Assembly (NCBI GenBank): GCA_964016885.1
Contig: OZ024742.1
Location: 345,340,001-345,404,000 of the forward strand
Length of the DNA: 64,000 bases
Source of the DNA: Eledone cirrhosa
Taxonomy: Eukaryota
Direction: 5' to 3'
Shown here: in pieces, positions 35,028-37,398 of the stretch
Layout of the letters: each line of letters starts with the position of its first letter
How positions within the stretch are numbered: the first letter of the stretch is position 1
Made by a program: the position numbers and the translations under genes
Notes under the pieces: model-generated
Told to the model about the DNA's origin: nothing
Database searches by the model: none
What the model saw: the letters and a program-made list of their open reading frames with translations, nothing else

Positions 35028-35377
35028 GAGTCCGTTTATTTTTGAGACTCGAAACCGATTCGGTAAAGGTAACTATAGTAGGTAAAGTTAATTTTTTTAA
35101 ATTTATTTTGAAACTTTTTCTTATTTGCTAAACCTTGATTATATATGTTCTGGCTCTTTAATTTATTAACCTGCCATTGAACCACATTGGCTATGGTTGG
35201 ACAATACATGTGTCTCTTAGCGCCTTCTGCGTGTAGGAACACATATTCTATTATATATATATATATATATATATATATATATATATATATATATATATAT
35301 ATATATATATATATATATATATATATAAGAGACGTAAAATAAGAAAATTATAAATTTAACTTACTTACTAAAATATC

Positions 35378-35460
35378 TCTTCCAACTAATTAGTTTCTGG
35401 AATGGAGTAAATATATTTTCCGGAGGATAATACGGAGAAGCATTCCGTCGTCAGGAAAGT
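35378..35460 (-). ncRNA. Type I hammerhead ribozyme (family D), copy 1
   Basis: Reverse complement of the 36398 fold; tcgtcag at 35448. Confidence 0.65.
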
Positions 35461-35890
35461 CTATTCTCATGTAAGTTTCCAGGCAAAGCGAGGACACTGG
35501 AAACTTATTAAAAATAATTCAGTGGATAGGAAATAGCAAAGCGTGGACTGAATTCCAAGCCATTGAGAAAATCACTGCCTCTACGTCTGTGGCAAATTCG
35601 AAAAGAATCGAACACGTGACATCGAGTGGAAAGTGGTTTGCTAATAAGACAGCGGCCTGCCTACAACCGTAGCAGCAGTCATGGCCAATATTGCTCGACA
35701 AATAATTTGGAGATAATAATAAAGAATTCATATCTAGTAACATATATATACATACAGATGCATATCAATGCTAGCAAATATATAGGTTTTGTCTTAATAA
35801 CAGTGTGGTTCAATGCATGGGGTTGCAGAACAATAATATAAGAGACGTAAAATAAGAAAATTATAAATTTAACTTACTTACTAAAATATC

Positions 35891-35973
35891 ACTTCCAAAC
35901 TAATTAGTTTCTGGAATGGAGTAAATATATTTTCCGAAGAATAATACAAGAAGCATTCCGTCGTCAGGAAAGT
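35891..35973 (-). ncRNA. Type I hammerhead ribozyme (family D), copy 2, with a 1-nt insertion at the cleavage site
   Basis: tcgtcag at 35961; acttccaaactaattagtttc. Confidence 0.55.
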
Positions 35974-36397
35974 ATATTCTCATGTAAGTTTCCAGGCAAA
36001 GCGAGGACACTGGAAACTTATTAAAAAATAATTCAGTGGATAGGAAATAGCAAAGCGTGGACTGAATTCCAAGCCATTGAGAAAATGTATATATATGTAT
36101 ATATATGTTACTAGATATGAATTCTTTATTATTATCTCCAAATTATTTGTCGAGCAATACTGGCCATGACTGCTGCTACGGTTGTAGGCAGGCCGCTGTC
36201 TTATTAGCAAACCACTTTCCACTGATTGACCTCGATGTCACGTGTTCGATTCTTTTCGAATTTGCCACAGACGTAGAGGCAGTGATTTTCTCAATGGCTT
36301 GGAATTCAGTCCACGCTTTGCTATTTCCTATCCACTGAATTATTTTTTAATAAGTTTCCAGTGTCCTCGCTTTGCCTGGAAACTTACATGAGAATAG

Positions 36398-36480
36398 ACT
36401 TTCCTGACGACGGAATGCTTCTCCGTATTATTCTTCGGAAAATATATTTACTCCATTCCAGAAACTAATTAGTTGGAAGT
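36398..36480 (+). ncRNA. Type I hammerhead ribozyme (family D), copy 3
   Basis: Reads actttc-CTGACGA-c ggaatg...cattcc a-GAAA-ctaattag-TT-ggaagt. Stem I is actttc/ggaagt, stem II is extended, stem III (AACTAATTAGTT) is self-complementary, and the triplet is GUU. Confidence 0.7.
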
Positions 36481-36920
36481 GATATTTTAGTAAGTAAGTT
36501 AAATTTATAATTTTCTTATTTTACGTCTCTTATATTATTGTTCTGCAACCCCATGCATTGAACCACACTGTTATTAAGACAAAACCTATATATTTGCTAG
36601 CATTGATATGCATCTGTATGTATATATATGTTACTAGATATGAATTCTTTATTATTATCTCCAAATTATTTGTCGAGCAATATTGGCCATGACTGCTGCT
36701 ACGGTTGTAGGCAGGCCGCTGTCTTATTAGCAAACCACTTTCCACTGATTGACCTCGATGTCACGTGTTCGATTCTTTTCGAATTTGCCACAGACGTAGA
36801 GGCAGTGATTTTCTCAATGGCTTGGAATTCAGTCCACGCTTTGCTATTTCCTATCCACTGAATTATTTTTTAATAAGTTTCCAGTGTCCTCGCTTTGCCT
36901 GGAAACTTACATGAGAATAG

Positions 36921-37003
36921 ACTTTCCTGACGACGGAATGCTTCTCCGTATTATTCTTCGGAAAATATATTTACTCCATTCCAGAAACTAATTAGTTGGA
37001 AGT
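36921..37003 (+). ncRNA. Type I hammerhead ribozyme (family D), copy 4
   Basis: Same sequence as copy 3, 523 nt downstream. Confidence 0.7.
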
Positions 37004-37398
37004 GATATTTTAGTAAGTAAGTTAAATTTATAATTTTCTTATTTTACGTCTCTTATATTATTGTTCTGCAACCCCATGCATTGAACGACACTGTTATTAA
37101 GACAAAACCTATATATTTGCTAGCATTGATATGCATCTGTATGTATATATATATGTTACTAGATATGAATTCTTTATTATATATATATATATATATATAT
37201 ATATATATATATATATATATATATATATATATATATATATATATATATATATATATATATATATATATATATATATATATATATATATATGTCGATATAT
37301 ATATATATATATATATATGTCGTATGGTTGCTAGGATGCGTCCATAGGCGGCAAGCTGGTTAAGCACTCTATGCTCCTTCGGAGCAGAGTATGATAAA

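Follow-up and report, generated by a model that had tools for sequence, protein, structure and literature searches.

A dispersed hammerhead retrozyme family in Eledone cirrhosa whose copies carry PLE-type insertion signatures

Introduction

In the 64,000-nt stretch of the Eledone cirrhosa genome studied here (the window), positions 35323-37180 hold hammerhead ribozyme (HHR) units in tandem as well as in inverted order. We ask what kind of locus this is and how its two opposite arms could have arisen. How retrozymes move, and how PLEs come to leave tandem and inverted insertions, are named as open questions in passages of the respective accounts (10.64898/2026.07.22.740005, PMC8557442, PMC7229834).

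Structure of the element

The element (locus L002 in our numbering) consists of a minus-strand arm (35323-36086) and a plus-strand arm (36085-37180) that are joined 5' end to 5' end, with a 2-nt overlap at the inversion junction (36085-36086). It is bordered by a (TA)38 tract on the left (35252-35327; target and/or newly added repeat) and a (TA)70 tract on the right (37178-37318). CTGACGA cores are found on the plus strand at 36404 and 36927 (spacing 523) and on the minus strand at 35967 and 35454 (spacing 513). Both spacings agree with an earlier sequence-only reading of this DNA. The left arm carries a 9-nt deletion and small indels.

We count unit coordinates from window position 36475 (+1). 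The left arm (764 nt, minus strand) then comprises +333 to +523, one unit with the 9-nt deletion (near 35627) and +1 to +61, and is joined to (TA)n at its 3' end, the short (S) site. The right arm (1096 nt, plus strand) comprises +133 to +523, one full unit and +1 to +181; its 3' end, the long (L) site, is likewise joined to (TA)n. The tail, i.e., the roughly 120 nt from the S site (+61) to the L site (+181), occurs on the plus strand as an internal copy (36536-36655) and as a terminal tail (37059-37180), the latter at the right end only.

Four HHR units are arranged along the arms: unit 1 (35891-35973) and unit 2 (35378-35460) on the minus strand, unit 3 (36398-36480) and unit 4 (36921-37003) on the plus strand. 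Cleavage is predicted after 35384 in unit 2, which is of type I with a 5-bp stem I, after 36474 in unit 3 and after 36997 in unit 4. The latter two predicted cuts delimit a 523-nt monomer at 36475-36997 (plus strand), exactly as had been proposed, and this monomer may give rise to a circular RNA. As a whole, it is more stable than 100/100 shuffled sequences (z -3.2). Motifs of a possible internal promoter (reverse CCAAT, CACGTG, TATA-like) lie at 36682-36877 (plus strand). No stop-to-stop ORF of at least 150 aa is present inside 35323-37180, and the element contains no RT + GIY-YIG ORF of an autonomous PLE. A splice-donor-like GTAAGT at monomer +17 to +26 (36492-36499) is kept in family A, to which the element belongs, and in its sister family B (see below); PLEs are reported to retain 5'-UTR introns in a section of PMC8557442.

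Ribozyme fold

Stem I, a long stem II, GAAA, the palindrome AACUAAUUAGUU in stem III and a GUU site are all present in the units. That is, we find the core CUGANGA, GAAA, a UH site and three stems with stem I open, as in type I HHRs; at 10.1-11.1, where stem II begins, a C·A mismatch takes the place of the standard pair. Scanning the 64-kb window with a type I descriptor yields 6 matches vs. 0 in 50/50 shuffles. Three of the four element units pass the descriptor, and the other three matches in the window are unrelated HHRs. The unit at minus 35967 (unit 1) fails because of an extra T at its predicted cut site, a variant seen in just 2 copies of the whole genome, this one included; unit 1 is thus likely impaired. 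Four near-identical type I units, two per strand, had been described before; this stands, except that not each of them is complete.

An Rfam check had also been suggested and turns out negative. The Rfam hammerhead models give no match at the gathering threshold in the 64-kb window and none at E<=10 in 35200-37300, and these scans missed all seven HHR-like motifs of the window. With regard to folding energies, the 111-nt HHR region, when folded without constraints, shows no gain in stability over shuffled sequences (z +0.96), and its free MFE structure differs from the HHR fold. Constrained to the HHR fold, it reaches -11.9 kcal/mol, as against -12.2 for the free minimum, a difference of no more than 0.3 kcal/mol.

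Covariation supports that the HHR fold is real. In a hand-picked set of 16 variants, whose relatedness inflates the test, 96.9% of the stem cells are paired and 22 of them show double changes (0/500 shuffles), with a covariation score of 0.343 vs. 0.145 for shuffled data. The double changes fall into 4 pairs, where those of stem I represent a single shift between families and stem III is invariant, hence uninformative. The C10.1·A11.1 mismatch is kept in 125/126 family A copies and in nearly all listed sister-family copies and is therefore no sign of decay; the sequence-only reading had noted it as a pair that may slow cleavage. An active axolotl HHR with U·U in this place is described in a passage of PMC7229834.

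For the stem III palindrome, we computed -10.8 kcal/mol for the duplex vs. +1.5 kcal/mol for the monomer hairpin; these modelled energies are in line with the earlier suggestion that the palindrome suits cleavage as a dimer. Dimeric cleavage of HHRs with a weak helix III is established according to part of PMC6155905, and only 1/9 Xenopus retrozyme dimers cleaved in vitro in the experiments reported in a portion of 10.64898/2026.07.22.740005. Many distinct HHR families are found in the genome (loci L101-L277), several of which have a pyrimidine mismatch at the stem II base and U or A as H17.

Genomic copies and classification

A genome search with a 311-nt query results in 3,288 candidates, the best 40 of which show 98-100% identity, and an HHR 19-mer has 2,557 exact matches genome-wide vs. 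0 for its control. This provides the copy-number check that had been called for. Since the first 100 of the 2,557 matches represent 59 loci, we estimate family A to comprise at least roughly 1,500 dispersed insertions; its copies are spread over many contigs. The locus is thus one of many and not the special one that it had been taken for.

A sister family B shows 4,754 matches of its own motif and has units of ~545-590 nt; both families are 68% identical across the whole unit. Motifs common to the wider group are matched 13,299 and 13,674 times (controls 2 and 59), and the units of the group succeed one another head to tail at intervals of 520-580 nt. A second loose-end motif has 0 matches in the genome. 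In none of the mapped loci of the group did we find an ORF contiguous with and upstream of the units. Within family A, a 542-nt subfamily (L039, L049, L069) carries a short duplication near +26 to +45. Furthermore, one family B array (L156:1429-2309) is a mosaic of two subfamilies, with the switch inside a unit and not at the cut.

The plus arm of the window element holds two consecutive HHR-bearing units (36404, 36927), and the family is dispersed, multi-copy and found alongside PLE ORFs in the same genome. By genomic definition, i.e., as read from sequence, family A is a young, dispersed, protein-free non-LTR retrozyme. The earlier retrozyme candidate is herewith borne out by tandem HHR units, the lack of an ORF and dispersed copies. 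The family is new, its kind is already known and the single locus is ordinary. The literature searched (mostly open-access, with the supplements of PMC7229834 and 10.64898/2026.07.22.740005 outside) describes no cephalopod retrozyme; in part of a squid genome paper, 235 hammerhead_1 matches are listed without description (PMC6962438).

Non-LTR retrozymes are reported from coral, mussel and axolotl in sections of PMC7229834 and from Xenopus and others in sections of 10.64898/2026.07.22.740005. Like family A, these animal retrozymes consist of tandem units that are short, low in GC and non-coding and contain one type I HHR each; they have thousands of dispersed copies and share their genomes with PLEs. 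A paragraph of PMC7229834 states that axolotl HHR_Amex2, too, is mismatched at the helix II base and performs better as a dimer. Family A differs in its unit length (523 nt vs. 170-400 nt for invertebrate retrozymes and 51-972 nt in a broader survey, as far as the portions of the respective texts go), in having C·A and not U·U at the stem II base, and in a long, internally looped stem II, which Rfam misses. For published retrozymes, cleavage and circles are demonstrated, whereas family A is known from sequence and predicted folds. Inverted arms with paired ends are not described in the compared portions of the retrozyme accounts.

Insertion ends

We mapped arm ends in 85 non-redundant family A loci, namely 27 best matches and 58 loci taken in position order from contig 1. 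The arm 3' ends are 59 S (+61), 67 L (+178/181) and 21 other ones, with 1 at a locus edge. S ends run into TA in 53/59 cases and L ends in 62/67, and the 5' ends of single arms abut TA in 21/33. Inverted copies make up 33 of the 58 position-ordered loci and are always divergent. Among 51 inverted junctions, we observe 34 S+L, 1 L+L and 0 S+S combinations, while 16 involve another end. That is, 34/35 inverted copies with two canonical ends combine one S with one L end (P about 1e-9). The sister families end at +78 and +200, with 25 S+L and 0 S+S combinations. Two sister-family L+L calls were discarded, being internal sites miscalled as ends.

The same pairing is found for ORF-bearing PLE families of the genome, where 17/17 divergent pairs (both members in one sequence stretch) have one short and one long end; this count covers five PLE families, a sixth being uninformative due to an internal TA run. 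Three ORFs of these families were checked and contain RT + GIY-YIG domains. We thus have a countable rule, i.e., a short plus a long end per inverted copy, both arms probably from a single template (see below), whose end part is also valid for ORF-bearing PLEs. In the literature searched (mostly open-access articles; the two supplements named above lie outside), there is no S+L rule, no single-template origin of arms and no repeat addition by PLEs.

These statistics bear on several other explanations of the locus. Over a length of about 760 nt, 36285-37058 offers a possible pairing partner to the left arm, which would suit a hairpin dsRNA or circRNA locus with a function for the host. However, a like inversion is present in 33/58 sampled loci and is therefore a routine by-product of insertion and no sign of dsRNA function; in addition, the window copy is ~98-99% identical to many family copies and surrounded by a pile of mobile-element pieces. 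We consider a host function extremely improbable. A misassembly might be suspected given short near-identical units next to long (TA)n, but the four units show private differences and the layout, with one S end, one L end and an overlap of 2 nt, conforms to the rule of the family, such that the probability of a misassembly is practically negligible.

The tandems could also be a satellite that expanded on the spot through unequal crossing-over and was inverted by a later DNA rearrangement. Such a route is proposed for retrozyme tandems in a passage of 10.64898/2026.07.22.740005. Yet, the arrays are short (median arm 460 nt), are dispersed on many contigs and have two fixed end positions. Moreover, inversions are always divergent with S+L pairing, and the sole convergent pair (L041) represents two separate elements. 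An origin as satellite is hence highly improbable.

In contrast, the anatomy is that of a PLE-type insertion: family A copies show partial tandems, an inverted 5'-truncated copy, a tail at one end and a preference for (TA)n. The same four features, with a tail that is often at one end only and accompanied by the inverted 5'-truncated copy, are given for PLE insertions in sections of PMC8557442. The mobilisation by PLEs suggested in the sequence-only reading is backed by the S/L ends, the inversion and (TA)n. So far, retrozymes and PLEs had been linked by co-occurrence and pLTR similarity; family A shows the PLE insertion signature itself. It differs from these published PLE insertions in having no ORF and in its tail (about 120 nt vs. 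30-40 nt).

The ~120-nt tail is predicted to form two hairpins, the second of which shows compensatory changes (2/17 consensus pairs). Both the S and the L site are located in predicted unpaired linkers flanking the hairpins, and both ends have 3-5 nt homology to (TA)n. A longer TA-rich stretch (+135 to +155) is seldom an end, i.e., homology alone does not select the sites.

In the twin priming of L1, one RNA serves two primers, and the 5' portion becomes inverted and is attached through microhomology. The two L1 segments have no content in common, and the second priming site varies at random. In family A, both sites are fixed and the arm contents overlap. For PLEs, the tail is defined by two internal RT start sites and the protein is a predicted dimer (PMC11167929). 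The anole Poseidon element PAc shares two internal RT start sites and an upstream HHR with family A (PMC11167929). Nevertheless, PAc starts at non-homologous sites that are alike on both strands (PMC11167929), while family A ends have 3-5 nt (TA)n homology with one site per end.

Template of the arms

To compare the arms, we use unit divergence, which is 2.0% between opposite arms, 2.1% within the same arm and 8.0% between different elements. For an unbiased set, the respective values are 3.0%, 2.4% and 8.0%. Since opposite arms differ no more than tandem units, both arms were likely copied from one template. A rare extra-T variant is common to all three matches at one locus and to both arms at another.

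Arms longer than one unit are frequent (60/148), with a maximum of 2,546 nt and a median of 460 nt, and in 33/34 S+L copies one arm extends beyond the site of the other. If the template was a single monomer, arms that exceed a unit and pass the other site imply strand displacement. The inverted junctions overlap by at least 1 nt in 38/51 and by at least 3 nt in 22/51 cases. At the cut-site junction between tandem units, 2 insertions of 1-2 nt are found genome-wide vs. 12 at a control position. Junctions as clean as these are compatible with exact ligation as well as with a multimer that stayed uncut. On the same counts, we rejected template jumps from one cut monomer to another.

The template could therefore also be an uncut linear read-through transcript on which a PLE primes at two sites, with an HHR that is slow or protein-dependent and circles that are rare or irrelevant. 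The clean cut-site junctions agree with this. So do the L049 and L091 arrays, where variants are common to non-adjacent units, a pattern not expected of a single monomer circle, as well as arm 5' ends clustered at +434 to +462, as expected of a transcript start. Furthermore, uncut RNA is the main template of the anole PLE in vitro, HHR cleavage being dispensable, and no RNA reads end at its HHR cut (PMC11167929). On the other hand, where the units of a young copy differ, they do so mostly by private single changes, and a rare variant is present in every unit of the element that has it; both together require a monomer step at some point. In addition, families that are only 68% identical still share the HHR core and stems. 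We regard the uncut transcript as unlikely, though with some standing, and on balance lean towards a circular rather than an uncut multimeric template.

Further signatures of copying

For the sister families, (CT)6-18 runs are found at 11/36 terminal L sites, while 40/40 internal copies have at most two CT units (P 1e-4); this count refers to the sister families, as the search pattern matched one family A site only. (CT)n runs are also present at long ends of Hydra and Neptune PLE families. The simplest reading suggested by these repeats is slippage or stuttering at priming; a later expansion beside (TA)n is a possible alternative.

A substitution hotspot is located in the stem II extension (+472 to +474; 36946-36948 on the plus strand, with the equivalent site at 36423-36425). 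Position +473 varies between units of one element in 21/51 family A elements vs. 2.5% background and in 10/28 young elements vs. 0.7% background, and all four bases are found. CpG decay was rejected as a cause, given that other CpG sites show 3.8% only. The pattern points to an error made while copying. In sister family B, no such hotspot is observed, i.e., 0-1/14 elements vary per position (4 mixed length/family loci left out).

Finally, 20/143 arm 5' ends are concentrated between +434 and +462 (P about 1e-4), just upstream of the HHR and downstream of the promoter-like motifs. Either transcription starting there or the RT pausing there could account for this cluster.

Proposed mechanism

Taken together, we consider it probable that the retrozyme inserts into (TA)n by means of a PLE RT-endonuclease that primes both strands on one RNA at +61 and +181. 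The PLE two-site step within this reading is held with high confidence. The process might run as follows. A transcript spanning two units would be made, possibly driven by a promoter near +435. HHRs paired via their palindromic stem III would cleave the RNA to a 523-nt monomer, which is then ligated to a circle. A PLE protein dimer would bind the structured 120-nt tail and nick (TA)n on both strands. Priming could use 3-5 nt pairing at the two unpaired linkers, where occasional stuttering adds repeats. Both RTs would continue with strand displacement, which yields partial tandems, and the ends would join by microhomology, such that the inversion is formed.

A more far-reaching version is tentative, and we rate it as somewhat doubtful in full: a PLE dimer holds a ribozyme-made 523-nt circle by its structured 120-nt tail and primes at two fixed sites that are never doubled, both arms are rolling, dinucleotide repeats are added by telomerase-like slippage during priming, and a position-specific RT-error hotspot in the ribozyme diversifies the family with every pass. 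If true, the (TA)n/(CT)n microsatellites next to the elements would be of the elements' own making. In any case, the copies of the family record the insertion mechanism unusually clearly and provide useful mechanistic signatures. As a small protein-free substrate, and with several intact enzymes as candidates, family A would allow twin priming and copying by rolling circle to be tested, as well as the addition of repeats.

PLE helper candidates

The genome has more than 10,000 GIY-YIG candidates, from which 40 loci were compared with the retrozyme. Young Neptune-type ORFs of 938 and about 1,000 aa are present, along with a Hydra-clade PLE family (L249, 894 aa) with the clade motifs RWK, DKT and CxCX5C, and a further PLE family of about 1,250 aa. 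The three motifs are given as Hydra-clade features in section 11 of PMC8557442. The retrozyme sequence was not found as pLTR of an autonomous PLE in the 40 GIY-YIG loci, the Hydra-like family or the second RT family. Likewise, none of the 18 loci with family motifs that are unassigned to families A or B is a partner.

This is relevant for the idea that an ordinary autonomous PLE left the element behind as a 5'-truncated relic (pseudo-LTR). Tail, inversion and (TA)n are indeed PLE insertion anatomy (in the portion of PMC8557442 cited above), and the genome has many ORF-bearing PLEs. However, units follow head to tail every 520-580 nt, mapped loci have no contiguous upstream ORF and no compared PLE (40 GIY-YIG + RT loci) has the family sequence as pLTR, which renders a relic very unlikely.

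For insertion by a PLE acting in trans, the Hydra-clade family L249 is no more than a helper candidate; its end geometry is most similar to that of family A. It shares a palindromic stem III, (TA)n ends (at ~+55 and +153) and some (CT)n long ends; its tail is ~100 nt long vs. ~120 nt in family A, without significant sequence similarity. That is, among tail alignments to six PLE families the Hydra-clade one scores best but is not significant (z 1.8, 32/500 shuffles). Independent of this, a young Neptune family (L121/L122/L126/L130/L132; 97% aa identity) has an HHR-like motif downstream of its ORF with a degenerate 5' core (TTGAAAA vs. CTGANGA).

Neighbouring repeats in the window

A broken RT fragment of a Hydra-clade PLE is found at 32300-33870 (minus strand); its family has 26,677 candidates and includes copies with open frames near 890 aa. 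It is followed by a Neptune-type PLE pseudo-LTR piece (33900-34520), which is about 80% identical to L123. Directly adjoining the element is an inverted HHR-bearing repeat (family N; 34607-35254) with HHR halves at minus 34642 and plus 34998-35065. Other copies of family N have ends at about +74 and +187, and its tail is weakly similar to that of family A (z 2.9, 3/500). On the other side, an inverted repeat between (TA)n tracts (37319-37720) carries a type I HHR in other copies, the core of which is mutated here.

Three further type I HHRs belong to other repeat families (plus 43771, minus 48790, minus 299), the first of which is reduced to a minimal fragment with (TA)n tracts on either side. 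In addition, the window contains a fragmented LINE at 45156-47007 with endonuclease (PF03372) and RT (PF00078) pieces, minisatellites at 56018-57420 (41-nt unit x34) and 60710-64000 (20-nt unit x164), and triplet runs at 50680-52074 (CAG/CAA followed by (TAG)250). Copies of a dispersed repeat with 84-90% identity, which we take to be SINE-like, are located at 30034-30223, 41529-41718 and 41903-41983.
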